A stretch of 25,647 nucleotides of DNA. Origin: Kiritimatiellota bacterium. Lineage in GTDB: Bacteria; Verrucomicrobiota; Kiritimatiellia; Kiritimatiellales; Tichowtungiaceae. The DNA lies in the NCBI GenBank assembly GCA_014381785.1, contig JACNKZ010000074.1:1-25647 (forward strand). The letters are read 5' to 3'. Both the position numbers and the translations under genes were made by a program. This document shows positions 175-24,043 of this stretch, piece after piece; position 1 is the first letter of the stretch; every line of letters starts with the position of its first letter. Below the pieces are notes generated by a model. That model worked only from the letters and a program-made list of their open reading frames with translations, was not told the DNA's origin and did not search any database.

Positions 175-283
175 TTCCAAACATTGGAACCGGCGCGGTC
201 ACCGCCCGCACCTACAGATCTGTAGCCACGCACGACGGGCGCGGTTGTCCTGCCCTTGGAAAAAATTCTTCCAAACTTTGGAA
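175..283. repeat. Iterated palindrome copies (TTCCAA-N3-TTGGAA) in the comM-upstream spacer
   Basis: Perfect copies at 175-189 (ACA core) and 269-283 (ACT). A degenerate copy GTCCTGCCCTTGGAA lies at 247-261. The 14-bp palindrome CTACAGATCTGTAG at 212-225 sits between them. Confidence 0.9.
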
Positions 284-405: not shown

Positions 406-597
406 ATGACAACGGTAAAAGAAATCGAAAAAGCGGTTGAGCATCTTCCGCCCAAAGATTTGAACCAGTTCCGCAACTGGTTCGAGGCATTTGAGGCCGC
501 CGCATGGGATCGGCAGTTGGAGGCTGATGCCCGTAGTGGACGCCTTGACCTTCTGGCGAATGAAGCCCGCGAAGAATACAGACGAGTAATTCGCTGA
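406..597 (+). CDS. Small conserved hypothetical protein, weakly antitoxin-like (addiction-module-component style), no toxin partner nearby
   Basis: ORF 364..597. The internal ATG at 406 gives MTTVKEIEKAVEHLPPKDLNQFRNWFEAFEAAAWDRQLEADARSGRLDLLANEAREEYR. The pattern LPxxxxxxFRxWFxxF..WDxQxExD..xGxLD recalls small antitoxin-like proteins. The functional call is from memory only. Confidence 0.4.
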   Translation: MTTVKEIEKAVEHLPPKDLNQFRNWFEAFEAAAWDRQLEADARSGRLDLLANEAREEYRRVIR

Positions 598-610
598 TTG
601 ATATTCACTT

Positions 611-677
611 TTCCAACCCTTGGAAACATCCGCGTTGATCCATGTTCATCCGCGGTTAAATCTTCCGATCATTGGAA
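611..677. repeat. Iterated palindrome copies at the convergent junction of the small ORF and the helicase
   Basis: 611-625 TTCCAACCCTTGGAA (perfect) and 663-677 TTCCGATCATTGGAA (1 mismatch). Centres are 52 bp apart. Confidence 0.9.
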
Positions 678-705: not shown

Positions 706-2637
706 CTAAAAAAATCCACGGTCTTTTTGCAAGAGATGCGGAGGGATTTCGTTGATGAAGCGGGAGGGCTCTAAAAAGATGATGCCGCCGTCGCGCTGGC
801 GGCGCACCTCGGGGCTGCACAGGAAGAGGTGGTCTTCGGCGCGGGTGACGGCGACGTAGAACAGCCGTCGCTCTTCGGAATCCCCCGCCTCTTCGATCGA
901 TTTGGTGCCCGGGAACATGCTCTCACACAGGAAGAGCACAAAGACCGCCTTGAACTCCAGTCCTTTGGCCTGATGAATGGTGCTGAGGCGCAGGGAGTCG
1001 GCCGGATCGGTGTCGGTTCGTGTGTCGCCCTCCGCATCGAGGTTCGAGAGCAGGGCGATTTCGCTGAGAAACGCCTCGGTGGTTTCAAATTTGGTGGTGA
1101 AGTCGATCAGTCCATCGAGATCTTCGGCGCGGTATTTGGAGTTATCAAAATTTTCTACCATGAACTCGTTGTAGAACGCCTTATTGAAACGGTAGACGAT
1201 TTCGCCGGGGTCGGCGTCGAGGGTTTCTTCGCGGTAAGCCAGAAAGACCGGCTCGATTTTTTTCCATTCGTCGCGCGCGGCGGCGGGCAGGGCGGTTTCA
1301 ACCTGCATACAGACCTCTTTGCGCTGCAGATTCACCCGTCCGCCGAGGGTTCGGAAAATTTTGAGCGAGGTCTTTTTTCCAACCTTTGGAAAAAGTTCCA
1401 ACAGACGGGTGAAGGCCAGCTCGTCGCCGGGGTTGACCAGGATCCGCAGTACGGTGCAGACGTCTTTGATGTGCGCCTGCTCGAAGAACCGGACGCCGGA
1501 GGTGACGATGTAGGGCATGGACGCGCGCGCCAGCTCCATCTGCAGTTCCATGGCGTGGAAGTGGGAGCGGTAGAGCACGCACATGTCCGAAGGGGAAATC
1601 CCTTCGCGGCGGAGCATCTGTACCTTTTCGATAATGTAGCGCGCCTGCGCACTGCCGTCGCGCAGTCCGGCGAGGACGGGATAGGCCCCTTCCGGACGGA
1701 CGGCTTTGAGTTCTTTCTGGAACTGGTCGGGATTGCCGGCAATCGCCGCGTTGGCGACCTCGAGGATTTCCGGCGTGGAGCGATAGTTGATCTGCAGCTT
1801 AAATTCGCGTGTGCCGGGATAGTGGCGTCCGAAGTCGAGAAAGTTGCGGAAGTCGGCGCCGCGCCACGAGTAGATGCTCTGGAAGTCGTCCCCCACCACC
1901 ATGATGTTCTGATGGACCTTGGCGAGCAGCTCCACCATGCGCGCCTGAATGGCGTTGGTGTCCTGATACTCATCGACAAGGATGTATTGAAACTCCTCCT
2001 GATAGAACCGCAGGATCTGTTCGTTTTGTTCGAGCAGCTTCAGGGCGTAGGAAAGGAGATCGTCGAAGTCCATCGCGTTCTGCTCTTTCTTGCGCTTCTG
2101 ATAGAGGTCGTGCACGCGGATGACATCTTCGAAGTCCACCTCGGTGTGTTCGAAGCGCTCAGCCAGCCCGTCGGCCAGATCGCCCATCTGTCCGCCGATG
2201 ACGCCGAAGATGCTTTGCAGCACCTGCGGCTTGGGAAAATGCTTTTTATCCATCTTCAGGTCGTCCGCGCAGGATCCGAGCAGCTTTTTGGAGTCGTCGG
2301 CGTCGAGGATGGCGAAGTTGTTGTCGAAGCCGACGCGCGGCGCGTGCGAGCGCAGGATGCGGTTGGCGAAGCGGTGGAATGTGCCGCTATAGCCGCTGGT
2401 GAAGGGGCGGTTGACCAGCCGTTCCGCGCGCTCAAGCATTTCGCCGGCGGCTTTGTTCGTGAAGGTCAGCAGTAGCATGTTGCGCGGGTCGAGCCCGCGC
2501 TCTTTCACCAGCCAGGCCAGACGATAGACCAGCGTGCGGGTTTTACCGGTTCCGGCCGCGGCAATGACGAGCGCCGGCCCGTCCGGAGCGGTGACGGCGG
2601 CGTACTGCTCTTCGTTGAGTTCCTTTTTGAAATTCAT
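706..2637 (-). CDS. UvrD/PcrA/Rep-family superfamily 1 ATP-dependent DNA helicase (643 aa)
   Basis: Motif I AAAGTGKT, motif II VDEYQDTN, motif III VGDDFQSIYSWRGA, NYRS, TIHQAKGLEF and YVAVTRAEDHL are all present in canonical order. Confidence 0.93.
   Translation of the reverse strand: MNFKKELNEEQYAAVTAPDGPALVIAAAGTGKTRTLVYRLAWLVKERGLDPRNMLLLTFTNKAAGEMLERAERLVNRPFTSGYSGTFHRFANRILRSHAPRVGFDNNFAILDADDSKKLLGSCADDLKMDKKHFPKPQVLQSIFGVIGGQMGDLADGLAERFEHTEVDFEDVIRVHDLYQKRKKEQNAMDFDDLLSYALKLLEQNEQILRFYQEEFQYILVDEYQDTNAIQARMVELLAKVHQNIMVVGDDFQSIYSWRGADFRNFLDFGRHYPGTREFKLQINYRSTPEILEVANAAIAGNPDQFQKELKAVRPEGAYPVLAGLRDGSAQARYIIEKVQMLRREGISPSDMCVLYRSHFHAMELQMELARASMPYIVTSGVRFFEQAHIKDVCTVLRILVNPGDELAFTRLLELFPKVGKKTSLKIFRTLGGRVNLQRKEVCMQVETALPAAARDEWKKIEPVFLAYREETLDADPGEIVYRFNKAFYNEFMVENFDNSKYRAEDLDGLIDFTTKFETTEAFLSEIALLSNLDAEGDTRTDTDPADSLRLSTIHQAKGLEFKAVFVLFLCESMFPGTKSIEEAGDSEERRLFYVAVTRAEDHLFLCSPEVRRQRDGGIIFLEPSRFINEIPPHLLQKDRGFF
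1377..1391. repeat. Iterated palindrome copy inside the helicase CDS
   Basis: TTTTTTCCAACCTTTGGAAAAAG, perfect with T/A-run flanks. Translated on the minus strand as FPKVGKK. Confidence 0.9.
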
Positions 2638-2770: not shown

Positions 2771-2804
2771 TCTGATGGTTTTAGCTTAAGCAATGGAGGT
2801 TGTT

Positions 2805-3350
2805 ATGGAACTGCGAAGAGGCCTTTGGAAAACGTGCCGAGTGATTGCTTCGGAAACCCGGTTGAAGATGTTGTGGTATCTTTTTGCAGAAGGGGAGTTA
2901 ACGGTGATGGAGTGCAGCCAGTTTATGAGATTGTCGCCGTCGAACACGAGCTTCCAGCTGAAGATGCTGCGCGAGTGCGGTCTGGTCATTTCGCGTCGGG
3001 AAAAGATGGAGGTATTTTGCCGGGCGGAGGCGAACAGCGCGGTGGAGTTTGCACCAGAGGTTCTGGAGGCGCTGAGGAGATGTCATGAGTTGGGTGTTTC
3101 TTTCAAAACATTGATTCGTCACGCGACAGCTTTTACTCATGAGCGACGGATCGAAATTTTGCGGGCACTGCGCGGGAGGTCATTGTCGGCGTTGGCGTTG
3201 CGGGATGCGACGGGAATGTCATCCTCTGCATTCTGTCGCCATCTGGATAAGCTAATACGGCGGGGTTACGTGAGGAATCTCGACAGGTCGTGTCGCATTG
3301 GGATCCCAGCGAATACGTTGGGCCGGACGCTGTTAAAGCTGGCGACTTGA
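2805..3350 (+). CDS. ArsR/SmtB-like transcriptional regulator with two tandem winged-HTH domains
   Basis: ORF 2793..3350. Start 2805 is preferred because of GGAGG 5 nt upstream. There are two ArsR-type segments. The first is RVIASETRLKMLWYLFAEGELTVMECSQFMRLSPSNTSFQLKMLRECGLVISRRE. The second is AFTHERRIEILRALRGRSLSALALRDATGMSSSAFCRHLDKLIRRGYV. GC content is visibly lower than in neighbouring genes. Confidence 0.7.
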   Translation: MELRRGLWKTCRVIASETRLKMLWYLFAEGELTVMECSQFMRLSPSNTSFQLKMLRECGLVISRREKMEVFCRAEANSAVEFAPEVLEALRRCHELGVSFKTLIRHATAFTHERRIEILRALRGRSLSALALRDATGMSSSAFCRHLDKLIRRGYVRNLDRSCRIGIPANTLGRTLLKLAT

Positions 3351-3364
3351 TAGGCGAGTTGTTT

Positions 3365-3462
3365 TTCCAATGCTTGGAAAAAAGACTGAGGCTAAAAATT
3401 TTTGAGCACCTGTTTTTCCAATGTTTGGAAGCAGGGATCGGTTATTTTTCCAAACATTGGAA
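3365..3462. repeat. Cluster of three perfect iterated palindromes between the ArsR-like and yihY 3' ends
   Basis: 3365-3379 (TGC), 3416-3430 (TGT), 3448-3462 (ACA). Centre spacings are 51 and 32 bp. Confidence 0.95.
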
Positions 3463-4687
3463 AATCGGCGGCCAGACCGAGCGCGGTGGGTGCGGTGCCG
3501 TCGTCGAGAATCGCGTCGGTGATGTCGCGGGCGGTGATGTTGAGCGGGTTGCGCAGCAGCGTGTAGCAGGAGGGGTTTTCGGCCGATTCCGCCACTAACC
3601 CGGCTTGCGCCAGCGTATGGATGACGTCGTTGATGAGGCGAATGGGGATTCGGTTTTCTATTCCGTAGGCGATGGTGTCGAACGGCGGTTCGGGAGACTC
3701 AAATTTGTCGGTGATTTTTTTCATGAGCGCGACGGCGAGGCAGAGGCGGGCGCGGGCGCTGGGCGTGACGGCGAGGCGTTCGCGGGCATAGGTGCCGGCG
3801 TTCTGAACCGAGAAGGCGACCTCCGCGCCCATCAGCAGAATCATCCAGCTCATCTGAACCCAGAAGAGGAAAATCGGGATGGCGGCCAGGGCCCCGTAGA
3901 TTTTGTTGTATTTGCTGACGCCGACGCCGAGTTTGATGATGCCGTACTGGAAGGCGATAGAGAGCAGCGCGGCGATGAATGCGCCGGTGAAGGCGGCGGA
4001 GAAGTTGACTTTGGTGTTGGGTAGAAAGAGATAAACGATGCTGAACGCGATCGCCATTGTGAAGACTGGGACCAGCTGCAGACCGATTTTCAAGAGGGGG
4101 CCCATCCATTCCAGTCGGCTGGCGAAGCCCATGATCACCGGCTGTCCGGAGGTGGCGACGATCATCAGAATTGGCGCCGCGACCATGATGACGATGTAGT
4201 TGCGGATTTTATCGATCAGGGTGCGCGATGTTTTTACTCCCCAGACCATATTGAATGTTTCTTCGATATTGCTGAGCATTTTGATGGCGATCCACAGGAA
4301 GAGGATGGTGCCGATCGAGCCGAGAGCTCCGGCGCTGGCTGATTCCACGGTGGTAATGATGTTGGTAATTGCCTGTTGGAAGGCGTCGGGCATTCCTGCT
4401 GTTTTTTCGAGCAGCATCTCACTCGCCCTTTCAAAGCCGAGTCCTTTGGCGATGGCGAAGAGAATGACGAGAAAGGGGACAAGCGCCATGACGGAAATAA
4501 AGGTGAGGGCCGAGGCGTGGATGGGGCACTTGTCTTCCTTGAAGCCTTTGATCACGAGCATACACACGCGCAGGAATTTGAGGCCGGCGGCGCGCGCTTT
4601 GGTCAGGGATGTCGGTTCCAACTCCCACAGGCCCTGTGAGAGAAAGGTTTTAATTGTGTCGCCGATTTCGCCTGCTTTTTTTTTCAT
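3392..4687 (-). CDS. YihY/virulence factor BrkB family inner-membrane protein with C-terminal soluble extension
   Basis: Start MKKKAGEIGDTIKTF at 4687, because the ORF-track start at 4762 adds an implausible leader. It has multiple TM segments and the family-typical ASALTFISVMALVPFLV. The last ~24 codons (3392-3465) are read through two copies of the iterated palindrome. Confidence 0.8.
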   Translation of the reverse strand: MKKKAGEIGDTIKTFLSQGLWELEPTSLTKARAAGLKFLRVCMLVIKGFKEDKCPIHASALTFISVMALVPFLVILFAIAKGLGFERASEMLLEKTAGMPDAFQQAITNIITTVESASAGALGSIGTILFLWIAIKMLSNIEETFNMVWGVKTSRTLIDKIRNYIVIMVAAPILMIVATSGQPVIMGFASRLEWMGPLLKIGLQLVPVFTMAIAFSIVYLFLPNTKVNFSAAFTGAFIAALLSIAFQYGIIKLGVGVSKYNKIYGALAAIPIFLFWVQMSWMILLMGAEVAFSVQNAGTYARERLAVTPSARARLCLAVALMKKITDKFESPEPPFDTIAYGIENRIPIRLINDVIHTLAQAGLVAESAENPSCYTLLRNPLNITARDITDAILDDGTAPTALGLAADFPMFGKITDPCFQTLEKQVLKNF

Positions 4688-5895: not shown

Positions 5896-6438
5896 TTATT
5901 TGGCTGTAAGTAGATTTTTGTTCTGCACAAAGTAGTGCCAGCCGCTCCAGATGGAGAGCGCGGTGACGAACAGCCCGCCCCACCAGAGGATCGTACCGCA
6001 TTTGTCCAAACAGTGGAAAACGCCGGCGAACAGAACAACGAGGATGAAGACCATCTGCCAGATGGTCTTGTGTTTCCCCCAGATGCCCGCAGCCAGCACG
6101 ATGCCTTTGTCGGCGGCGAGCAGCCGCAGACCGGTCACCATAAATTCACGGGAGAGAATCAGCGTGACCATCCAGGCGGGCATAACCCCCAACTCGATAA
6201 ACCCGATGAAGGCGGCGGCGGTCAGGACTTTGTCGGCCAGCGGATCCATCAGCTTGCCGAAATCGGTGCAGCCGTAAACGGTCCGGGCGAGGTGCCCGTC
6301 AAGCGCGTCGGTGAGCGCGGCGAGCGCAAAAACCACCAGCGCCAGAATCATGGAGCCGGGGAAGGTGATGCTGAGGCAGACCATTAAAAGAGCGGCCATG
6401 CCGAAACGGCTGAGGGTAAGAATGTTGGGTGGGTTCAT
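5896..6438 (-). CDS. pgsA: CDP-diacylglycerol--glycerol-3-phosphate 3-phosphatidyltransferase (CDP-alcohol phosphatidyltransferase family)
   Basis: CDP-alcohol motif DALDGHLARTVYGCTDFGKLMDPLADKV (D-G-x2-A-R-x8-G-x3-D-x3-D). 180 aa with multiple TM segments. Confidence 0.88.
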   Translation of the reverse strand: MNPPNILTLSRFGMAALLMVCLSITFPGSMILALVVFALAALTDALDGHLARTVYGCTDFGKLMDPLADKVLTAAAFIGFIELGVMPAWMVTLILSREFMVTGLRLLAADKGIVLAAGIWGKHKTIWQMVFILVVLFAGVFHCLDKCGTILWWGGLFVTALSIWSGWHYFVQNKNLLTAK

Positions 6439-7103: not shown

Positions 7104-9506
7104 CTATGCGTCCGGTCTGTATTCCTCGTCATCGTCGGGAAAATCCTGCGGGGCTTCCGCCTCGGCGATCGGTTCGTCCGGTATGTCGCCGGGCTCCTCC
7201 GCGGGGGTGTACACGGTGGGGGCATCGGGGATTTCGCCGTCGAGATCCACAAGAATATCGCGCGGACCGGTTTCGGTCGGCGGACCGATGATGCCTTTTT
7301 CTTCGAGCAGATCCATGAGGTTGGCGGCGCGGTTATACCCGATCCGCAGGCGGCGCTGCAGCGAGGAGGTCGACGCGCGCTTGGTGGAGCGCAGCACCTC
7401 CATCGCCTGTTCGAGCAGCTCGTCGCTCTCGTCGAGCTCCGGCATGGCCGGTTTGTTACTCTCGATCTTCTGCGTGATTTCGGTGATGAAATCGGGCGTG
7501 CCCTGCGTGCGGACAAAGTCGGTAACGCGGGCCATCTCTGTGTCTTTGGTCCAGGCTCCCTGCAGGCGGACCGGCTTGCTCCTGCCGGGCGGTAGGTAGA
7601 GCATGTCGCCTTTGCCGAGCAGTTTTTCGGCGCCGATGGTGTCGAGAATGGTGCGGCTGTCGTTGCCCTGCGCCACCTGGAAGGCGATGCGGCCCGGGAT
7701 GTTGGCTTTGATGGTTCCGGTGATGACGTTCACGGACGGGCGCTGCGTGGCGAGGATCATATGGATACCGGCGGCGCGCGAGAGCTGGGCCAGACGTACG
7801 ATGCACGGCTCAATCTCCTGCTGGGCGACGCCCATCAGCTCGGCCAGCTCATCGACCACAATAACGATGTAGGGCAGCTTGGCCGGAACGTCATTCACGG
7901 CGGGTTTGAGTTCGCCGAACATGTCTTCCTGTTTTTCAATCGGGCGCTCGTTGAAGCTCTTGATGTCGCGCACCTTCATTTTTTTGAACAGCGCATAACG
8001 TTTTTCCATCTCTTTAATCGCCCAGCGCAGGCCGAGGGTCACCTTTTTGGCATCGGTGATGATCGGCACCACGAGATGTTTAAGGTTTTCGTAGGCTTGG
8101 AATTCGAAGGTTTTCGGGTCGACGAGAATCATGCGCATCTGCTCCGGGGTGCGCGTGAGCAGCAGGCCGGTCAGCAGGGAGTTCATACAGACGGTTTTGC
8201 CCGCGCCGGTGGCGCCGGCGATCAGCAGATGCGGCATACTGGCGAGGTCGCCGACAATCAGTTTGCCGGACACATCGGTTCCGAGCGCGAGCGGCAGCGC
8301 CACGGTGGGATCGTGGAACGCCCTGCTTTCCGCCAGCTGGCGCAGAAGGACCGGCGAGCTTTTGGAGTTGGGAATTTCAATGCCGACCGCCCCTTTGCCG
8401 GGAATCGGAGCCTGAATACGAATGCTCTGCGCGCGCAGTGCCAGCGCGATGTTGCGTTCGAGCGAGGAGATTTTTTCGACGCGCACGCCGGGGGCCGGGG
8501 TAACCTCGTACGAGGTGACGGTCGGGCCGACCTCAACGTGAGTCACTTCGCCTTCCACACCGAACTGTTCCAGCGTGGCTTGTAGAATGCGGGCTTTTTC
8601 GGCTGTGTTCTCGGTGGACTGCATGGTTCTGGCCGGGGGCAGTTCGTCGAGCAGCGTGATCGGCGGCAGCTGGTAGCCGGACTTGTCGACACCGGGGGCG
8701 ATATTGACGGAAACGTGCGCCAGATCATCTTTTTCCGGCGCGACGACCGGCGCTTTTTTCCTCGCTTCGATTTTAGGAGCCGCCGGCTTCGGAGCCGGTT
8801 TGGGTGCGGGAGCCGCCGCCGGAGCGGGCGGGGTGAAGAGCTCTTGCGCTTTTTGTTTGCGGGTGCGCTTTTTCGGTTTAGCCGTTGGCACTGGCGCGGC
8901 GACCGGCTCTTCTACCGAACCCTTTTTGCGGTTCACCAACGCTTTCACCTGCGTCCAGAGGAAGATGAACGGCGTGAACGGATGCATGCCGGTTAGTTGA
9001 AGAAGGGCCAGCACCAGAACGGTGACAAACACGATGCTCGCGCCGGCATGGCCGATCCAGCTCCCAAGGGTGCGGACGGCCAACAGCTGACCAATCAGTC
9101 CGCCGGGGCTGCCGACATTCAGCCAGCCGGCCAACCGGTCAGCCCACTGCCAGGGGAGATATTCAAAAAGTCCGGCCAGCGCAATCAGCCCTCCGGCGAG
9201 CCAGCTCCAGACCGGCCAGATCCGTTCATAGGAGCGCAGGGTCATCAGCAGCCCGCCCATCAACAGAGCGAACGGCACCAGATAGCCGGCAATGCCGAAC
9301 CACATAAACCCGGCGAAGGAAAACCAGACGCCGACGATTCCGCTGGGGGAGAAACTCTCCGGCGGATTGTTAAACAGTGGAACGTATTCCGGCCGGTAAC
9401 TGAAAAAACAGAAGAAGCTCCAAAAGCAGAGTCCCAGCAGGATAATGCCAAAGGCTTCCTTCTTTGTGGAACGGACGGGTTCAGCGGGTTTTGATTTTTT
9501 AGCCAT
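7104..9506 (-). CDS. ftsK: DNA translocase FtsK
   Basis: N-terminal TM segments, a Pro/Ala/Lys-rich linker, Walker A GATGAGKTV, Walker B IVIVVDELAELM, and the gamma wHTH domain ASTSSLQRRLRIGYNRAANLMDLLEEKGIIGP. Start MAKKSKP at 9506 is preferred over the ORF-track 9575. Confidence 0.93.
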   Translation of the reverse strand: MAKKSKPAEPVRSTKKEAFGIILLGLCFWSFFCFFSYRPEYVPLFNNPPESFSPSGIVGVWFSFAGFMWFGIAGYLVPFALLMGGLLMTLRSYERIWPVWSWLAGGLIALAGLFEYLPWQWADRLAGWLNVGSPGGLIGQLLAVRTLGSWIGHAGASIVFVTVLVLALLQLTGMHPFTPFIFLWTQVKALVNRKKGSVEEPVAAPVPTAKPKKRTRKQKAQELFTPPAPAAAPAPKPAPKPAAPKIEARKKAPVVAPEKDDLAHVSVNIAPGVDKSGYQLPPITLLDELPPARTMQSTENTAEKARILQATLEQFGVEGEVTHVEVGPTVTSYEVTPAPGVRVEKISSLERNIALALRAQSIRIQAPIPGKGAVGIEIPNSKSSPVLLRQLAESRAFHDPTVALPLALGTDVSGKLIVGDLASMPHLLIAGATGAGKTVCMNSLLTGLLLTRTPEQMRMILVDPKTFEFQAYENLKHLVVPIITDAKKVTLGLRWAIKEMEKRYALFKKMKVRDIKSFNERPIEKQEDMFGELKPAVNDVPAKLPYIVIVVDELAELMGVAQQEIEPCIVRLAQLSRAAGIHMILATQRPSVNVITGTIKANIPGRIAFQVAQGNDSRTILDTIGAEKLLGKGDMLYLPPGRSKPVRLQGAWTKDTEMARVTDFVRTQGTPDFITEITQKIESNKPAMPELDESDELLEQAMEVLRSTKRASTSSLQRRLRIGYNRAANLMDLLEEKGIIGPPTETGPRDILVDLDGEIPDAPTVYTPAEEPGDIPDEPIAEAEAPQDFPDDDEEYRPDA

Positions 9507-9546
9507 TCCGGCGATTATAGAGATCAAAGCGGGCTTTTGAAGCAAA

Positions 9547-10374
9547 TTAAGCTCTTCTGCATTTGAAAATAACAACCACCGGAATGCGGGCGAGCTGGTC
9601 GTACAGCGCGCGCCAGCCTTTGCTGTCGTAGGGAACCTTTTCGAGGATCTCCTTTTTGCTCATGTCGGGGATCGGCAGGGGGGCGGGTTCGAGCAGTCGC
9701 TCAATGACCAATCCGGCGTTATATATCCATTCGGCAATCTGTGAAATCGGCCAGGTTTGCGCGGCGTTCATGGTTTTGTCGTCCATCGACATGCGCACAT
9801 CGGCTTCGAGTTGAAAATAGTCGGGCAGGAAGACGCCGTCCTCCCCGTCGCCGATGTCGAGCCATTCTCCGGCGTAGAGCGGATGGCCGGTGGTCAGCAA
9901 CAGCGTGCCGCCGAGCTTGAGCATTGCGGCGCAGTCGGAGATCACCTTGGCCGGGTCGGCTGAGAACGGTAATGCGTAAGAGGAATGAATGAGGTCGAAG
10001 GAAGCAGGCTCCCACGCTCCCTCTTGCAATGAGTCCATCGAAACGCAGCGGAAATCGACGTTGACGTTTTCTTTGGCGGCCAGCTTGCGGCCGTGCGCGA
10101 GCTGTTCTTCAGAAATATCGATGGCGACACACTGCGCACCCTGCTTGGCCAGAAAGATGGAGTTCTGCCCCGCGCCGCAGCCGATTTCCAAACATTGGAA
10201 AATTCCGCCGGAATTTTTTCCAATGTTTGGAAGGAGTTCAAGCTGCGAATCGCCGGGCAGGAGCGGGCCGTAGTGGAAGTCGCTGGTGGAGATGCGGGTC
10301 TCTTTCTGATAGAGCTCCGCGATGTCGTTCCAGTAGCGCGCGCTGCTTGCGTCGGTGTTGCCATTAAATTGCAT
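9547..10374 (-). CDS. Class I SAM-dependent methyltransferase
   Basis: Motif I LEIGCGAGQN and the Methyltransf_11/25-like layout. Start MQFNGNTD at 10374. The ORF-track extension to 10533 reads through repeat DNA (SNVWK). Confidence 0.82.
   Translation of the reverse strand: MQFNGNTDASSARYWNDIAELYQKETRISTSDFHYGPLLPGDSQLELLPNIGKNSGGIFQCLEIGCGAGQNSIFLAKQGAQCVAIDISEEQLAHGRKLAAKENVNVDFRCVSMDSLQEGAWEPASFDLIHSSYALPFSADPAKVISDCAAMLKLGGTLLLTTGHPLYAGEWLDIGDGEDGVFLPDYFQLEADVRMSMDDKTMNAAQTWPISQIAEWIYNAGLVIERLLEPAPLPIPDMSKKEILEKVPYDSKGWRALYDQLARIPVVVIFKCRRA
10186..10232. repeat. 47-bp near-perfect composite palindrome (two iterated palindromes plus palindromic spacer) inside the methyltransferase CDS
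   Basis: TTCCAAACATTGGAA-AATTCCGCCGGAATTTT-TTCCAATGTTTGGAA, translated as PNIGKNSGGIFQCLE. Confidence 0.95.
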
Positions 10375-10384
10375 GTGGAAAATT

Positions 10385-10470
10385 TTCCAGACATTGGAAC
10401 CGGAAAGCAAGCCGCAACACGGCCGGAGGAGGAAATCATCCAAACCCCAGGGCTTTTCCACCCGTTGGAG
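10385..10470. repeat. Iterated palindrome copies in the methyltransferase/ferritin divergent spacer
   Basis: 10385-10399 TTCCAGACATTGGAA (1 mismatch) lies 10 nt upstream of the methyltransferase ATG. 10456-10470 TTCCACCCGTTGGAG has 2 mismatches. Confidence 0.8.
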
Positions 10471-11680: not shown

Positions 11681-12967
11681 TTATGAGTGATCGCGGGAGA
11701 CTAGCAGGAACACTTTATCCTGTCGACGGGCTTTGGCGGTAAGCGCCCCGGCAGCAGAGCGCAGCTCGCTACAGGGCAGGCGCAGGGTGACCATGTCTCC
11801 GGGGTTTGCCGCGTCGGTGGGTTCGCCGTCGACGCGCAGGTTTTCGGCGGTGAAGCGAACGGCGCCGGTGGTCGGGCCTTCAATCAGCAGCTGGTCGCCC
11901 GGCTGAATGGTGTGTTTGATCAGTTTGAACTCTGCCACGTTGAGGTTGGCAAAAAAGTTGGAGACGGTTCCGATCTGGTCGCGCGTTTCGGTCGCCTGAG
12001 AATGGGAGTTACCCGACCATTCGCCGAGCGGTTTGCCGCAGTAGTAGCCGCCGTGCCAGAAGCCGCGGTTGAAGACCTTACTCAGTTCGTCAATCCATGG
12101 CTGGCAAGTTGACGGATCGTAGGTTCCGGCGGCGAGGGCGTCGAGCGCTTCGCGGTAGACGCGGGTGGTGACGGCCACGTAGTCGGCGGTGCGCGCGCGG
12201 CCCTCCAGCTTGAGCACGGAAATGCCGGCGACGGAAATTTTGTCGAGGTATTGAACGGTGCAGAGATCTTTGGGTGACATGATGTGTTTGTTATCGATCA
12301 CCAGTTCTTCGCCGGTTTCCTCGTCGGTGACGCGGTAGCTGCGGCGGCAGGTCTGCAGGCAGGCGCCGCGGTTGGCGGAGTGGTTGTTCTGCGCCAGACT
12401 CATGTAGCACTTGCCGCTGACGGCGACGCACAGCGCGCCGTGGCCGAACAGTTCGAGCCGGACCGGTTCGCCGGACGGGCCGCGCACATCGTGCTCCTGC
12501 ACTTTTTTATAAATAGTGGAAATCTGGTCAAGCGTCAGCTCGCGTGCGAGCACGACGGTGTCGGCCCAGCGCGAATAAAATTCCAAGGCTTGGAAATTGG
12601 CGACATTGGCCTGCACGGAGATATGCACTTCGAGGCCGAGTGAGCGGGCGGTTTCGATGGTGGCGATGTCGGTGGCGATGACGGCGGAAACGCCGGCGGC
12701 TTTGGCGGACTCGCACAGCGACTGCATCTCTTGCATCTCGTTGTCGTAGATGATGGTGTTGAGCGCGAGGTAGCTTTTTACGCCCGCTTCGCGGCAGCGC
12801 GCGGCGATGCTCGGCAGATCGTCCGCGGTGAAATCGGCTGAGCGCGCCCGCATATTGAGTTTGCCGACGCCGAAATAGACCGAGTCCGCGCCGGCGTCAA
12901 TGGCGGCGCTCAGCGCCGCCTGCGATCCGGCCGGAGCCATCAGTTCAATTTTTGATTGGTTGCTCAT
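11681..12967 (-). CDS. Peptidase U32 family protein (collagenase-like / RlhA-TrhP-type)
   Basis: N-terminus MSNQSKIELMAPAGSQAALSAAIDAGADSVYFG is the canonical U32 start. The rest matches U32 layout (ELFGHGALCVAVSGKCYMS). The ORF-track extension to 13309 is rejected. Confidence 0.88.
   Translation of the reverse strand: MSNQSKIELMAPAGSQAALSAAIDAGADSVYFGVGKLNMRARSADFTADDLPSIAARCREAGVKSYLALNTIIYDNEMQEMQSLCESAKAAGVSAVIATDIATIETARSLGLEVHISVQANVANFQALEFYSRWADTVVLARELTLDQISTIYKKVQEHDVRGPSGEPVRLELFGHGALCVAVSGKCYMSLAQNNHSANRGACLQTCRRSYRVTDEETGEELVIDNKHIMSPKDLCTVQYLDKISVAGISVLKLEGRARTADYVAVTTRVYREALDALAAGTYDPSTCQPWIDELSKVFNRGFWHGGYYCGKPLGEWSGNSHSQATETRDQIGTVSNFFANLNVAEFKLIKHTIQPGDQLLIEGPTTGAVRFTAENLRVDGEPTDAANPGDMVTLRLPCSELRSAAGALTAKARRQDKVFLLVSRDHS
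12581..12595. repeat. Iterated palindrome copy inside the U32 peptidase CDS
   Basis: AAAATTCCAAGGCTTGGAAATT, perfect. Translated as FQALE. Confidence 0.85.
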
Positions 12968-12981
12968 TACAGTTCCACAGT

Positions 12982-12996
12982 TTCCAATGTTTGGAT
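12982..12996. repeat. Iterated palindrome copy centred in the 42-bp U32/tspO divergent spacer
   Basis: TTCCAATGTTTGGAT (1 mismatch). It lies 14 nt from the U32 ATG and 13 nt from the tspO ATG. Confidence 0.85.
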
Positions 12997-13009
12997 AAAA
13001 TGCACAACC

Positions 13010-13477
13010 ATGAAGGGTCTTAAGAATGTCGGAAGGGTTCTCCTGTTTCAACTGATTGCGTTTTTGCCGTCGCTCGGAGCACTCGCGGTGCGGACGGACG
13101 GGTGGTACGCCCAGCTTTCGAAACCGGCCTGGAATCCGCCGCCTGCCGTGTTCGGCCCCGTGTGGACGGCTTTGTATGTTCTGATTGGGCTGGCCGGATA
13201 TTTTGCGTGGACGCGCGGCGGGCGGCGAGGCCGCCTTACCGTATTTGCCGTGTATGGAATGCAACTCCTTCTCAACGCACTGTGGACTCCGCTCTTTTTT
13301 GGACTGCACCGCCCGGCGCTCGCGCTGGCGGATCTGATTTTGATGTGGTTTCTGATTTTGCTTTGCATCGGCCGGTTTGCGCCGCGCAGCCGGTTGGCGG
13401 CCTGGCTGATGTTGCCGTACTTCCTGTGGGTATCGTTTGCCGGCGCGCTCAATGCCGCGATCGTCTGGATGAACTGA
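13010..13477 (+). CDS. tspO: TspO/MBR family tryptophan-rich sensory protein
   Basis: WYAQLSKPAWNPPPAVFGPVWTALYVL and LNALWTPLFFG are signature TspO motifs. Length from the ATG at 13010 is 155 aa, matching the family. Confidence 0.9.
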   Translation: MKGLKNVGRVLLFQLIAFLPSLGALAVRTDGWYAQLSKPAWNPPPAVFGPVWTALYVLIGLAGYFAWTRGGRRGRLTVFAVYGMQLLLNALWTPLFFGLHRPALALADLILMWFLILLCIGRFAPRSRLAAWLMLPYFLWVSFAGALNAAIVWMN

Positions 13478-13528: not shown

Positions 13529-14281
13529 ATGTCTGAAAATACAAAACCTGAGTGGACGCCCGAGCTGGACAAAGAAAACTCCTCTGCCGTCTGGGCGCAT
13601 GTGGTTCCCTTCCTCGCCTGGCTGCTAATGATGTCGCTGCTCGGCGATCCGTCCGGAACCCATTATGCGATCCAGACCGTCGGCGGACTTATTCTTCTTT
13701 TGGCGTTTCGTCCGTGGCGCTGGTATGAGCGCCCGAAGCTCAGCAGCCTGCCGCTGGCCATCGCCGTCGGCGTGCTGGTGTTTGTGTTTTGGGTCGGCCT
13801 TGAATCGGAATTTTTCAAAAGCGCACTGCCGGGCGTCAGCACCTTCTACGAAAAATATTTTGTCGACCTGATTCATTTCGGAACCCTGCGCGAACCGTTG
13901 GAGCTGGGTGAAAACGGATTGTATCACTACGACCCGCGCACCACCGGCTGGCCGCTGTTCTGGGTGCACATGCTCGGCACCACCCTGGTCATCGGCGCGA
14001 TTGAGGAGTTTATGTTCCGCGGCTTCCTCTATCGCTGGATGCAGGGCAGTCCCTTTTTCAAAAAAGATATCGGTGTGATGAACCCGCTGATGTGCATCCT
14101 CGTTGCCATCATTTTCGCCCTCGAACACAATGAGTGGCTGATGGGCTTCCTGTGCGGGCTGATGTTCACCTGGGTGATCGTGAGAACGAAGGACATCTGG
14201 GCGGGCATTTTCGCCCACGCACTCACCAACGGCCTGCTCGGCTGGTACGCCGTCCATACCGGCGCCTACTGGTTCTGGTGA
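13529..14281 (+). CDS. CPBP-family (CAAX-protease-like) intramembrane glutamic endopeptidase
   Basis: EEFMFRGFLY and FALEH motifs plus a C-terminal FAHALTN in a polytopic membrane protein. Start MSENTKPEW at 13529 is preferred over the TTG at 13478. Confidence 0.8.
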   Translation: MSENTKPEWTPELDKENSSAVWAHVVPFLAWLLMMSLLGDPSGTHYAIQTVGGLILLLAFRPWRWYERPKLSSLPLAIAVGVLVFVFWVGLESEFFKSALPGVSTFYEKYFVDLIHFGTLREPLELGENGLYHYDPRTTGWPLFWVHMLGTTLVIGAIEEFMFRGFLYRWMQGSPFFKKDIGVMNPLMCILVAIIFALEHNEWLMGFLCGLMFTWVIVRTKDIWAGIFAHALTNGLLGWYAVHTGAYWFW

Positions 14282-14283
14282 TT

Positions 14284-14526
14284 ATGAGCGAAGAACTGAC
14301 ACCCGACCCCGAGGTTTTTAAAAAACTGGTCACCGCGACGATGCCGTTTGGAAAATACGCCGGGCAGCGGCTGATTGATCTGCCGGAGCCGTATGTGGTT
14401 TGGTTTAAGCAGAAGGGTTTCCCGAACGGCGAGCTAGGGATCTTGCTCGAGACCGTCTACACCGTTAAAGCCAACGGCCTTGAATATCTCTTTCGCCCCG
14501 GCGCAAAAAATTCCGAGGGCCGTTAA
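14284..14526 (+). CDS. DUF3820-family small protein
   Basis: [33 protein letters not shown] matches my memory of the DUF3820 signature. It starts 3 nt after the CPBP stop. Confidence 0.7.
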
Positions 14527-18004: not shown

Positions 18005-18050
18005 TTCCAAAGGTTGGAAGATTTTTACCGTAAAGTTTCGAGCCTTGGAA
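18005..18050. repeat. Iterated palindrome pair between thiE and the S41 peptidase gene
   Basis: 18005-18019 TTCCAAAGGTTGGAA (perfect) lies 12 nt upstream of the S41 ATG. 18036-18050 TTTCGAGCCTTGGAA has 2 mismatches. Centres are 31 bp apart. Confidence 0.85.
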
Positions 18051-18888: not shown

Positions 18889-19987
18889 ACCTATAAGCCG
18901 CATCCCAGTTTTTAAAGACGGGTTCCAGTTTGCGTTCGCGGAGCATGGTGCAAAAGGTCGTCACGTCGCGGTTGTCGTTCACGTCGAACTGTCCTTCGTC
19001 GGAGCCTACATCTCCATAGCCGCCGACGGTGGTTTTACTGGCAACACTCATCTTATTGCATCCGAGCCCGGCCATGCCGTCGCGGAAGGCGGCAGACTCG
19101 CGGGTGGAGAGCACCAGCGGGACATCGGGCAGGCAGATGCGGAAGGCGAAGACAAACTGCGCGAGCTGCTGTTCTGAAACCGGATGCGGGGCGGTAAAGC
19201 CCCCCGCTTCGTTCTGGATGCGCGGGAAGGAGATGCTTAAGCCCGCCTGCCACCGGGTTTTCTGCAGGTGGCGCACATGCCGGTAGAGCGCGAGCAGGTC
19301 AAACTGCGGATCGGCCAGCCCGAGCAGTGCGCCGAGCCCGGCGAAGCGCAGGCCGCCGCCCAGTGCGCGGCCGGGCGCATCGATCCGTTCGAGCATTTCA
19401 CTTTTCGGCCCCCAGCGGTGCATCTGCTGATAGGTCTGCGGGTGATAGGTTTCCTGATAGAGCGTCACGCCGGTGCAGCCCGCTTCGGCGAGCTGCCCGT
19501 ACTCTTTTTCAGACATTGGAAAAACCTCGATGGTGACCTTGTGGAAATGGTTCGCGGCCAGCTCAACACATTTCAAAACGTAATCGAAGTCTGCCTGCGG
19601 TGTGCGTTCGCCGGTCAGCAGCAGGATTTCTTCCAGCCCCATTTTTTTGAGCGCGGCCAGTTCGGTTTCAACCTGATCGAAGGAGAGCTTGTGGCGTTCG
19701 GTGTCGCGATCGGACGCAAATCCGCAGTAGGCGCAACCGCCGGGGCAGAAGCTCGATAGATAGAGCGGAACGTAGAGCTGGATGGTGCGGCCGAAGTGGC
19801 GGCGCGTCAGTGCCTGCGCGCGCGCGGCCATGGGTTCGATGAAGTCCGCGGCGGCGGGGGAAAGCAGCGCGGCCAGCGTCTTTTCGTCCGGCGACTCCGC
19901 GCCGAGGGCGCGTTGAACCTCCGCAGCCGAAAAGATGCGGTTCAGCCACGGGGACGGGTCGAGCCAAGTAGGGAGAGAGTTGCTCAT
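18887..19987 (-). CDS. thiH: 2-iminoacetate synthase ThiH (radical SAM)
   Basis: [10 protein letters not shown] radical-SAM cluster motif, ThiH-length protein, and position between thiG and thiE. ATGA overlap with the thiG stop. Confidence 0.88.
19507..19521. repeat. Degenerate iterated palindrome inside thiH
   Basis: TTTTTCAGACATTGGAAAAA keeps the T/A-run flanks. It has 2 mismatches to consensus and 1 to the 10385 copy. Translated as FPMSEK. Confidence 0.6.
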
Positions 19988-21103: not shown

Positions 21104-21138
21104 GCAAAAAACTCCCGGCGCAGACGACGGGAGTTTTT
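21104..21138 (-). terminator. Intrinsic terminator forming the expression platform of the TPP riboswitch
   Basis: On the minus strand, ACTCCCG-N10-CGGGAGT is followed by TTTTTT. The 5' arm ACUCCC can alternatively pair with the GGGAGU of the aptamer's closing helix (anti-terminator logic). Confidence 0.8.
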
Positions 21139-21140
21139 AA

Positions 21141-21226
21141 CGTCACTCCCTTTCGCCGGTACTAACCGGATCAGGTTCTGCGGGTATTATCTCAGCGCTC
21201 CAAAAAAGAGGCACCCCGGGAACAGG
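21141..21226 (-). promoter_or_regulatory. TPP (THI-box) riboswitch aptamer
   Basis: Minus strand reads GGGGUGCC...GCGCUGAGAUAAUACCCGCAGAACCUGAUCCGGUUAGUACCGGCGAAAGGGAG. It contains the conserved CUGAGA, ACCC and AACCUGAUCCGG...CCGGCG..AGGGA elements of the TPP riboswitch. It lies upstream of thiS. Confidence 0.9.
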
Positions 21227-21333
21227 CTTGAGAGGATGCCAAGGTGGGGTGGAAAAGCATAGATCAAAAAAGCGCTTATTTTGTGTTGCGCCGTTCGCTC
21301 CGTTTGTTATCTTGCTCGCTCGCTTTTGCCGAT

Positions 21334-21408
21334 GGCCCCATCGTTCAGCGGTTAGGACTCCAGGTTTTCATCCTGGCAACACGGGTTCGATTCCCGTTGG
21401 GGTCACCA
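21334..21408 (+). tRNA. tRNA-Glu (anticodon UUC), CCA encoded
   Basis: GGCCCCATCGTTCAGCGGTTAGGACTCCAGGTTTTCATCCTGGCAACACGGGTTCGATTCCCGTTGGGGTCACCA. Acceptor stem GGCCCCA/TGGGGTC, anticodon stem CCAGG/CCTGG with loop TTTTCAT, T-arm CGGGTTCGATTCCCG. Confidence 0.93.
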
Positions 21409-23880: not shown

Positions 23881-24043
23881 TTCCAAGGGTTGGGCTCTGC
23901 GTTGCCAGAGGGCGATGCAGGTCAAGAAAAGAAAAGGAGCCGCCATGCTATGGCTTCCAATGTCTGGAAAAAATGTGCTAGCTTCGCTCCGGATTTTTCC
24001 AAGGGCTGGAAAAAAAGGTATGAAATTTTTCCAATGGTTGGAA
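23881..24043. repeat. Array of four iterated palindromes in the repeat-protein/nadB divergent spacer
   Basis: 23881-23895 TTCCAAGGGTTGGGC (2 mismatches). 23955-23969 TTCCAATGTCTGGAA (1). 23997-24011 TTCCAAGGGCTGGAA (1). 24029-24043 TTCCAATGGTTGGAA (perfect, 11 nt before the nadB ATG). Confidence 0.9.

Follow-up and report, generated by a model that had tools for sequence, protein, structure and literature searches.

Why should an ordinary piece of chromosome carry the same short palindrome over and over, and why should neighbouring copies so often stand at the same distance from each other? The question is raised by a 25,647-nucleotide stretch from a Kiritimatiellota bacterium (GenBank assembly GCA_014381785.1, contig JACNKZ010000074.1, positions 1 to 25,647 of the forward strand; this whole stretch is called the window below). 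The interrupted palindrome TTCCAA-N3-TTGGAA is found there 25 times with up to 2 mismatches, against 1.25 +/- 1.27 (maximum 6) in shuffled versions that preserve dinucleotides, and its frequency in the chromosome of the window's organism is about one per 1-1.5 kb. Neighbouring copies are almost always separated by whole turns of the double helix, three being the usual number. We think it probable, if far from certain, that the palindromes are arrays of binding sites on one face of the DNA for an abundant, oligomerising, putative double-stranded-DNA-binding protein.

An initial annotation of the window had singled out four pairs of the palindrome with centres 31 or 32 bp apart, and all four are present:

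3416..3462: pair 1, two exact sites (3416-3430 and 3448-3462) 32 bp apart, with centres TGT and ACA, inside the last ~23 codons of a yihY-family open reading frame (ORF) that is convergent with an ArsR-like gene
10186..10232: pair 2, two exact sites (10186-10200 and 10218-10232) 32 bp apart, inside the coding sequence (CDS) of an S-adenosylmethionine (SAM) methyltransferase, 9547-10374, minus strand
23881..24043: four-site cluster with starts at 23881 (2 mismatches), 23955, 23997 and 24029, that is, spacings of 74, 42 and 32 bp (7, 4 and 3 turns), located between two divergent genes, one hypothetical (minus strand) and one encoding a flavin adenine dinucleotide (FAD) flavoprotein (plus strand); its last two sites (23997-24011, 1 mismatch, and 24029-24043, exact, 32 bp apart) are pair 3
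18005..18050: pair 4, an exact site (18005-18019) and a degenerate one (18036-18050, TTTCGAGCCTTGGAA, 2 mismatches), spaced by 31 bp and situated between thiE and an S41 C-terminal protease gene

The second spacing that had been noticed, of 51 or 52 bp, is also real (starts 3365 to 3416 and 611 to 663). Four of the ten neighbour distances up to 100 bp in the window are 31 or 32 bp, the chance of which is ~6e-5 by a hand calculation that takes distances as uniform over 16-100 bp. Up to 250 bp there are twelve such distances (94, 52, 169, 51, 32, 32, 167, 71, 31, 74, 42 and 32 bp), ten of them no more than 1.5 bp away from a multiple of 10.39 bp, and the two that leave this ladder, 169 and 71 bp, each involve a weak copy with 2 mismatches.

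The same spacings are found in independent DNA, where a histogram of distances has peaks at 31/32 bp and at ~51-53 bp. We used 29 related Kiritimatiellales loci, fetched via FtsK and not via the motif, and together with the window their distances up to 150 bp include 31 bp twelve times and 32 bp eleven times, with minor peaks at 20-22, 41-42, 51-53 and 70-74 bp. A metagenome scan for two exact sites with a gap of 5-35 nt (20-50 bp apart) added at least 120 loci (594 kb). We analysed 119 of them and left out L096, a contig with a GC of 0.32 in which 9249-9550 is a 41-bp tandem satellite with conserved spacers that contains TTCCAAAATTTGGAA by chance and is unrelated (L numbers designate individual loci throughout). 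The scan pattern itself seeds distances of 20-50 bp in the metagenome loci, and we checked the phasing again in ranges without seeding as well as in the genome loci. Among the matches listed, the 119 loci gave 22 bp 21 times, 30-32 bp 144 times, 42 bp 15 times and 52 bp 12 times, and past the seeded range the ladder went on through 52, 62-64, 73-74, 82-84, 93-96, 102-105, 113-116, 123-126, 133-136 and 144-146 bp, in steps of ~10.4 bp to ~200 bp.

The pooled sample of related genome and metagenome DNA (~960 kb) holds 296 nearest-neighbour distances of up to 250 bp; nearest neighbours alone were used, so that summed steps of 31/32 bp cannot create a ladder. Whole turns, within 1.5 bp, account for 94.6% of these distances (28.9% expected), and, fitted by least squares, one turn measures 10.39 bp (95% bootstrap interval 10.33-10.43), with an offset of 0.3 bp and a root-mean-square residual of 0.85 bp. 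Three turns are by far the commonest step (201 distances), followed by 2 turns (30), 4 turns (26), 5 turns (8), 6 turns (5) and 7 turns (4), with 22 more distances at 9-22 turns. The periodicity has a strength R of 0.77-0.89 at 10.3-10.4 bp with near-zero phase, against a null 99.9th percentile of 0.18-0.82, and it is there separately for the genome loci, for the metagenome loci, for the unseeded range of 51-250 bp and with 29-33 bp deleted; the smallest subset (12 distances of 51-250 bp from the genome loci) has an R of 0.80, just short of its null 99.9th percentile of 0.82. A period of ~10.4 bp coincides with the B-DNA repeat and is characteristic of the duplex; neither RNA nor single strands have this property. 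The suggestion of the initial annotation, that fixed helical phasing would betray a dimeric protein binding cooperatively on one face of the DNA, is thus supported as far as sequence statistics allow, because the period is 10.39 bp with near-zero phase in two independent data sets and because the spacers keep their length and not their sequence.

The motif that is phased in this way is somewhat wider than first described. A logo of the sites extends it to ~21 bp, tTTTCCAA-n-S-n-TTGGAAAa, flanked 5' by a T-tract and 3' by an A-tract, and past the palindrome and these tracts the logo has no sequence conservation. Each site consists of two 6-bp arms, 9 bp apart from centre to centre, around a 3-bp centre (15-bp core, 21-bp footprint with flanks), an anatomy of the kind that dimeric operators typically have. 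In 92% of sites the base on the dyad is G or C; among the centres ACA/TGT is the most frequent, and ACC and GCA are also common. Two of the window matches, 1546 and 8088 (2 mismatches each), are probably chance hits, 8088 because it is a conserved FtsK codon string and 1546 on the sole grounds of a weak match and an off-phase spacing. The motif is specific to the lineage. Many of the 29 Kiritimatiellales loci have 0.1-1.2 copies/kb, and 26 outgroup loci (493 kb) contain 4 one-mismatch matches and no exact copy. When all palindromes with 5-bp arms are enumerated, TTCCA-N5-TGGAA ranks first in both high-density relatives (81 copies in 140 kb) and low-density relatives (27 copies in 191 kb, with ~0.2 expected), the latter using as their dialect the relaxed form TTCCAG...CTGGAA. 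It is not a hallmark of phages or mobile elements, since merely 16 loci with a pair turned up in 2.9 million viral contigs. Three of the viral contigs (L180 10093-10135, L182 5989-6031 and L183 5438-5480) have pairs 28 bp apart, off the helical ladder, and these may be a different repeat of one phage group. A search of the searchable literature found no description of the motif or of palindromes in Kiritimatiellota.

Comparison of relatives indicates what is being kept. At the locus orthologous to pair 1, L076 has preserved the two palindromes with their T-tracts, still 32 bp apart, with the 17-nt spacer and one of the centres diverged, and in L011 the pair is still recognisable, with substitutions at inner arm positions. 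The pair-1 cluster includes a third site at 3365, which sits in a ~42-bp segment lacking from the L076 locus. At the position orthologous to pair 2 the number of copies varies:

no copy: L004, L009, L018, L024 and L025
one copy: L017, L023 and L028
two copies at 32 bp: the window, L001, L008 and L010
two copies at 20 bp: L027
three copies at 32 and 42 bp: L002

A CTGGAA (Leu-Glu) half-site was already there, and substitutions and small in-frame indels turned it into these states; between L004 and L017 a copy was gained by point substitution with no change in length. The decayed site 6004 in pgsA is TTTTCCA...GGAAA at the orthologous position in seven relatives, and is perfect in L002 and L019, with centre and flanks varying. 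Over syntenic alignments of at least 400 bp, the TTCC/TGGAA cores are 0.81-0.88 identical, the centre 0.52-0.68 and the flanks 0.66, compared with 0.78 for a random-position control. In other words, the surroundings of the sites evolve faster than average around conserved arms.

Inside genes, we counted 58 sites deep in confident CDS, a number that overstates independent sites, as orthologous copies in different relatives were counted separately; they use all three frames, read as FQxLE (37), PxxGK (11) or SxxWK (10), and a single peptide motif does not explain them, because all three frames are used. They persist at orthologous positions within variable segments of the protein, such as those in pgsA and in the methyltransferase loop. 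Pair 2 is read as PNIGK...FQCLE directly before SAM motif I of the methyltransferase, whose true start is the ATG at 10374. The tail of the yihY ORF (3392-3470) and the methyltransferase (10186-10232) read their 32-bp pairs in the same way, as xPxxGK, five residues and FQxLE. No frame of the motif contains a stop codon, and the last ~23 codons of yihY may be an extension of the ORF by it.

The methyltransferase loop that hosts pair 2 has different in-frame insertions in other species (L015 2776-2910, L016 8870-9004, L019 4789-4923, L023 2046-2171 and L028 4872-4997). One of these is a GC-rich segment that reads ARLRQGSGAARTAD, another a hairpin, ggccgggtg(a/c)ccccacccggc, that reads CRPGxPTRR, and farther downstream in the gene there are long insertions of the PPRPS... 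type in L010, L015, L019 and L025. They look like other repeat families in the same permissive loops.

We infer the responsible protein, its oligomeric behaviour and its effect on transcription as follows. The palindromes would dock an abundant sequence-specific protein on double-stranded DNA, in the simplest case a dimer of helix-turn-helix type, one subunit of which would read TTCCAA and the other TTGGAA in successive major grooves. Bound dimers would touch along one face of the helix, or the DNA would wrap on the oligomer, and selection would hold neighbours whole turns apart, with 3 turns preferred, 2 and 4 common and the preference detectable to ~20 turns. A period at the B-DNA repeat, combined with a distance that is kept when its sequence is not, is the classical signature of proteins that touch on the same face. 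Arrays in 21-22-bp steps exist, and because packing at this distance occurs, the footprint of the protein should be at most two turns; the three-turn preference would match, by analogy, oligomers such as the octamers of the Lrp family. Free DNA loops in vivo have a helical repeat of roughly 11 bp, and 10.39 bp comes near the repeat of DNA that is relaxed or bound to a surface; the value would favour direct contacts or wrapping over long-range looping. The protein would be nucleoid-associated or a global regulator, and not the regulator of one pathway, because of the abundance of the sites, at roughly 0.3-1.2 per kb, the lack of a functional theme among their neighbours and their presence in all types of gap and inside genes. 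A site that precedes a start codon by 8-15 nt, or lies between close divergent starts, probably modulates transcription too. Only tentatively do we go one step further and suggest that Kiritimatiellales may carry an undescribed chromatin-like system, in which thousands of near-perfect docking sites would be kept by selection, also within coding sequence, and a dedicated protein would polymerise on them along one DNA face or wrap the DNA in steps of 2-3 turns, organising the nucleoid and modulating many promoters together.

Several points weigh against binding by such a protein. Near-perfect sites of 12-18 bp at ~1/kb are unusually many and unusually exact for known nucleoid-associated proteins, and the predominantly G/C dyad contrasts with the A/T-rich centre of Lrp-type sites. 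No protein could be tied to the sites, and a tblastn search with an E. coli Lrp query found no homologue in the ~960 kb, a sample drawn from many genomes and too small to be informative. The only regulator nearby, the ArsR-like gene (2793-3350), has the sites downstream and not upstream of it. Density differs more than 10-fold among relatives, which is equally expected of a spreading element, and 4 of 36 arrays have similar spacers, tandem duplication contributing to some arrays. There is little bias towards any type of gap (0.80/kb in divergent, 0.69/kb in tandem and 0.49/kb in convergent gaps), and a 105-bp gap that needs promoters for both tRNA-Glu and a thiamine pyrophosphate (TPP) riboswitch has no palindrome, containing TTGCGC-N16-TATCTT in its place. 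The last two observations make a purely transcriptional role unlikely.

The palindromes could alternatively be selfish repeats of the repetitive extragenic palindrome (REP), bacterial interspersed mosaic element (BIME), REPIN or miniature inverted-repeat transposable element (MITE) kind, with a hairpin recognised by a transposase (e.g., RAYT) and pairs that are mobilised doublets. A short palindrome in very many copies is what such elements would provide, and the sites are 4.2-fold enriched between genes (1.03/kb intergenic, 0.25/kb coding; both counts are approximate, as genes were called with a crude codon-usage finder that missed the ArsR-like gene and over-extended some 5' ends). They also come and go between relatives through indels of 15-42 bp, with the >10-fold difference in density already mentioned, and REPINs are recognised through pairs with a sharply preferred spacing. 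The initial annotation had observed that the central triplets of pairs 1 and 2 are mutually inverted and had read the 47-bp unit as one larger inverted repeat, able to fold as a hairpin or cruciform. The observation stands for those two window pairs, which are long inverted repeats, but it does not generalise: among 184 pairs at 31/32 bp the centres are mutually inverted in 23 (12.5%; 10.2 by chance) and identical, that is, direct, in 41 (10.5 by chance). The inner spacers are not self-complementary (0.27, against 0.25 when shuffled) and are unrelated to each other (mean pairwise identity 0.30); the larger inverted repeat describes just 12.5% of pairs. A composite element with a defined architecture, also proposed at the outset, agrees poorly with the unrelated spacers, with spacings that form a ladder from 2 to ~22 turns and with a copy number that shifts at one orthologous position through substitutions and small in-frame indels. 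Nor does the 10.39-bp ladder resemble one or two lengths set by an element. Many copies are intragenic, in three frames; the gain of a copy in L017 relative to L004 required no insertion; single-site hairpins are weak as DNA (-3.5 to -6.7 kcal/mol), with nothing conserved beyond the palindrome and its A/T tracts; and no transposase recurs beside the arrays, which is weak negative evidence. The sites thus carry neither hairpin nor mobile-element signatures, and we regard a selfish repeat as unlikely.

A second alternative to same-face binding is some form of drive, or a function that has nothing to do with architecture, as in the cyanobacterial highly iterated palindrome (HIP1), the uptake signal sequences (USS) and the DNA uptake sequences (DUS): an uptake or recombination bias, a methyltransferase with its reader, or biased repair. 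The frequency of ~1/kb, the restriction to a lineage, the dialects TTCCAA and TTCCAG among relatives and the origin of sites by substitution would all suit it. USS likewise favour the most tolerable peptide, and the USS core of Haemophilus has A/T-tract flanks like those of the present motif. We know of no HIP1- or USS-type system with helical phasing or with tandem arrays at 2-3 turns, and drive alone leaves unexplained why the distance between sites is kept as the spacers diverge. Conservation of the motif extends to both coding and non-coding DNA and to every frame, with the most tolerable peptide favoured, and HIP1 is alike in this (PMC5861425); the periodicity of HIP1 is on the kb scale, however, and the word "helical" does not occur in that paper (PMC5861425). 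Besides, this alternative overlaps with protein binding, as a receptor for uptake, or a reader of methylation, binds DNA too. We give it a low probability.

It is very unlikely that the arrays are simply diverged tandem duplications (minisatellites) of a 31-32-bp unit, whose spacing would be historical and without function. Arrays have 2-6 units, with spacers of 7-17 bp and centres that vary within the array. The 4 arrays of 36 in which spacers are clearly similar, the slightly higher identity of spacers within arrays (0.41) than between them (0.30) and the variable copy number at the methyltransferase locus are what duplication would leave behind. It would account neither for the peaks at 2, 4, 5, 6, 7 ... 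22 turns and the isolated sites, nor for palindromes kept amid randomised spacers, nor for sites created by substitution only and the 20-bp variant (L027). Two arrays (L170 1163-1302 and L151 24-163) have flanks of the opposite polarity (TTGGAAcTTTT...AAAAcTTCCAA) and mutually similar spacers, which suggests recent tandem duplication together with a lineage variant of the flanks. Another kind of array, with steps of [22,30,31,22] bp, recurs in L061, L063, L065, L086, L100, L113, L154, L175 and L177, next to differing genes and in contigs of higher GC, most of them at 0.63-0.70 (L065 0.54, L177 0.59). These arrays (e.g., L100 8468-8587) are built from a 37-bp doublet, TTCCAATGATTGGAA-aaNtttt-TTCCAATGGTTGGAA, and have T-S-A centres, which results in a perfect CCAAT/ATTGG inverted repeat.

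A structure in RNA or in single-stranded DNA (a hairpin, a cruciform, a bidirectional terminator or a 5' untranslated hairpin controlling translation) is highly improbable, since a 10.39-bp phase over 200 bp belongs to duplex DNA. The palindrome with its T- and A-tracts, and the ~15% of sites that end shortly before a start codon, are the attractions of this idea, and folding of the 47-bp units did give long hairpins for pairs 1 and 2 (z about -6.3 to -6.5), though not for pairs 3 and 4. Such pairing of one copy with the other is trivial, because each copy is itself a palindrome, as it would be for any repeated palindrome. With 2 G-C pairs per 6, the stems are rich in AT and fold weakly; the order T-tract, stem, A-tract is the reverse of that in a terminator, and convergent gaps are not enriched; sites occur in all types of gap and inside genes. 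An Rfam scan of the window found only the TPP riboswitch and the tRNA, and no family at any site.

The positions relative to genes bring up a further possibility, that the motif is a core promoter element of the lineage. In approximately 15% of the sites, 8-15 nt separate the end of the site from the ATG of a long ORF downstream, and in the window such start-proximal sites belong to the methyltransferase (10385), the S41 protease (18005; the site ends 12 nt upstream of the ATG at 17992), the flavoprotein (24029; 11 nt lie between its end and the ATG at 24055, and a Pfam match from residue 7 confirms that start) and the divergent U32 and TspO genes (12982). This enrichment, the single site centred between divergent starts 42 bp apart and the match of TTGGAA to the -35 hexamer TTGACA at 4 of 6 bases would fit a promoter. 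The idea is scarcely credible, as the siteless 105-bp gap has an ordinary TTGCGC-N16-TATCTT promoter, sites also lie in convergent gaps and inside genes, most window genes are without an upstream site, and palindromic symmetry suits a dimer and not a sigma factor. A scan with the sigma-70 consensus found no enrichment over shuffles and is uninformative for this organism. Between most proximal sites and their ATG we saw no obvious Shine-Dalgarno sequence. Finally, the arrays are not of the CRISPR type, with repeats of 15-21 bp (not 21-48), spacers of 7-17 bp (not 26-72), varying centres and housekeeping neighbours.

The remaining sites of the window are the following:

3365..3379: third site of the pair-1 cluster, 51 bp (4.9 turns) upstream of 3416, in the ArsR-like/yihY convergent gap
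10385..10399: site with 1 mismatch, 167 bp (16.1 turns) from 10218; it stops 10 nt upstream of the start of the methyltransferase (ATG, 10374)
10456..10470: weak site with 2 mismatches and uncertain membership, in the divergent gap between the methyltransferase and a Dps-like gene, 71 bp from 10385 (6.8 turns, slightly off phase)
12982..12996: single site with 1 mismatch, centred in a 42-bp gap between the divergent start codons of a U32/TrhP-like gene (12967, minus strand) and a TspO/MBR gene (13010, plus strand)
611..677: two sites, 611 exact and 663 with 1 mismatch, 52 bp (5 turns) apart, in a convergent gap downstream of a uvrD/pcrA-like gene
175..283: two exact sites, 175 and 269, 94 bp (9 turns) apart, upstream of a small ORF
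6004..6018: decayed site with 2 mismatches, inside the pgsA CDS
1377..1391: exact site with T- and A-tract flanks, inside the uvrD/pcrA-like CDS
12581..12595: exact site inside the U32/TrhP-like CDS, conserved in L001, L002, L018 and L019
20856..20870: exact site in the thiS ORF region
19507..19521: weak site with 2 mismatches and uncertain membership, inside thiH

Site 10385 has the same placement in L004 and L023 and is shared by L008 and L009. At the place orthologous to 12982, both L001 and L002 have a 31-bp pair. As the U32/TrhP-like and TspO/MBR starts (12967-13010) are only 42 bp apart, their promoters must overlap coding DNA or their mRNAs must be almost leaderless. The flanks of 12581 are conserved as well as the site, and constraint on the protein and on the DNA are inseparable there.

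All these sites stand among ordinary chromosomal housekeeping genes: uvrD/pcrA, the ArsR-like regulator, yihY, pgsA, a rodZ-like gene, ftsK, the SAM-methyltransferase, the Dps-like and U32/TrhP-like genes, TspO, yjdM, tsaD, the S41 protease, thiE-thiH-thiG-thiS, tRNA-Glu, fabI and the FAD flavoprotein. The relatives of its FtsK put the window in Kiritimatiellales, close to Pontiellaceae/Tichowtungia-like metagenome-assembled genomes, with a best amino-acid identity of 79-81%. The methyltransferase (9547-10374, minus strand) matches small-molecule families of the UbiG/BioC type, not DNA methyltransferases. Beyond the window, the neighbours of arrays with 3-6 sites are likewise unrelated (GH127, aspartokinase, pyruvate phosphate dikinase, HrpB, a FliI-type ATPase and LptE), and no gene family, small ORFs included, recurs beside pairs or arrays in a sample that would rarely include a given single-copy gene.

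The ArsR-like protein (2793-3350, plus strand) has 185 aa and tandem winged helices (HTH_5 at 20-66, HTH_20/MarR-like at 116-161). Its gene lies directly upstream of the 3365/3416/3448 cluster, an arrangement also found in L076 (76% identity). It is a possible but unsupported candidate for the binder: the sites are downstream of the gene, and at such a density of sites their adjacency is not beyond chance. The TPP riboswitch (21130-21228, minus strand) heads the thiS-thiG-thiH-thiE operon, divergent from tRNA-Glu(ttc) (21334-21408, plus strand). Two small products may be mentioned: the ORF 406-597 (plus strand) has no Pfam match and resembles, by eye, the antitoxin-type component of an addiction module, and 14278-14526 (plus strand) encodes an 82-aa protein of the QSregVF_b family.

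Palindromes as abundant as HIP1 have gone for decades without a functional explanation. The present motif adds to such abundance a strict phasing, a three-turn preference and arrays of up to ~6 sites, and this signature points to a mechanism that can be tested, oligomerisation on one face of the DNA, and offers a practical route to the binder. If the chromatin-like system existed, this would be the first hyper-abundant genomic palindrome whose arrangement directly indicates its mechanism. The sites could serve to study how a genome tolerates and maintains predicted protein-binding sites inside coding sequence, and how the nucleoid is organised in a poorly studied phylum, Kiritimatiellota, with densities that vary >10-fold between close relatives. 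More practically, the motif offers a strong taxonomic marker of Kiritimatiellales when metagenomic contigs are binned, and it inflates ORF calls because it is stop-free in every frame.

How does same-face binding compare with systems that are already known? Lrp doubles as a nucleoid-associated protein. Members of its family bind cooperatively to clustered semi-palindromic sites that follow each other at 2 or 3 turns along one helix face, and wrap the DNA (PMC2995911). The arrays of Lrp/AsnC proteins (the Ss-LrpB boxes, and those of E. coli Lrp at pap and ilvIH) resemble ours in that they are clusters of (semi)palindromes of 13-15 bp with a centre of odd length, and our motif has the same-face spacing of 2 or 3 turns (201 + 30 of 296). 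It differs in its centre, which is N-S-N and not the A/T-rich abcdeWWWedcba, and in having near-perfect sites, ~100-fold more of them than any described Lrp regulon and many of them intragenic.

NrdR binds two 16-bp palindromic boxes with centres 31-32 bp apart (sometimes 21 or 41-42), as an oligomer on one face; the boxes have the consensus acaCwAtATaTwGtgt and are confined to the promoters of ribonucleotide reductase, a few per genome. The spacing of our pairs and their three-turn preference are the same, whereas the sequence and the gene context are not, with hundreds to thousands of sites beside unrelated genes. REPINs are inverted extragenic doublets that form one long hairpin with a spacing set by the element, and some REP/BIME sequences of E. 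coli are bound by IHF and gyrase. Like the REP, BIME and REPIN families, our motif is a short palindrome with hundreds of copies, enriched between genes, in doublets and arrays with a preferred spacing; unlike them, its doublets are mostly not inverted, its copies are not confined to extragenic DNA and its spacing is not fixed by an element. The DUS of Neisseria and the USS of Pasteurellaceae have oriented, non-palindromic cores that are more evenly spaced than random. They share with our motif a frequency of ~1/kb, dialects between families, genic copies in tolerated frames, A/T-tract flanks (USS) and accumulation by substitution, but the motif is palindromic, with strictly phased copies and tandem arrays.

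With HIP1 (GCGATCGC), which occurs about once per gene in cyanobacteria, is conserved in coding and non-coding DNA in three frames and has dialects (PMC5861425), the motif shares a lineage-wide hyper-abundance and conservation in all frames. HIP1 is a contiguous 8-mer containing methyltransferase targets, with a kb-scale periodicity and a function that has long been unknown (PMC5861425), whereas ours is an interrupted palindrome of 15-21 bp with a strict 10.39-bp phasing, and no such phasing is reported for HIP1. CdbA of Myxococcus and EspR of M. tuberculosis, which we compare by their descriptions, are similar in having hundreds of chromosomal sites and a part in nucleoid organisation and not in a single regulon; in those descriptions, thousands of near-perfect, strictly phased long palindromes are reported for neither. 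By analogy, then, a motif whose G/C dyad departs from the Lrp site definition appears to combine the geometry of Lrp and NrdR with the abundance of HIP1.

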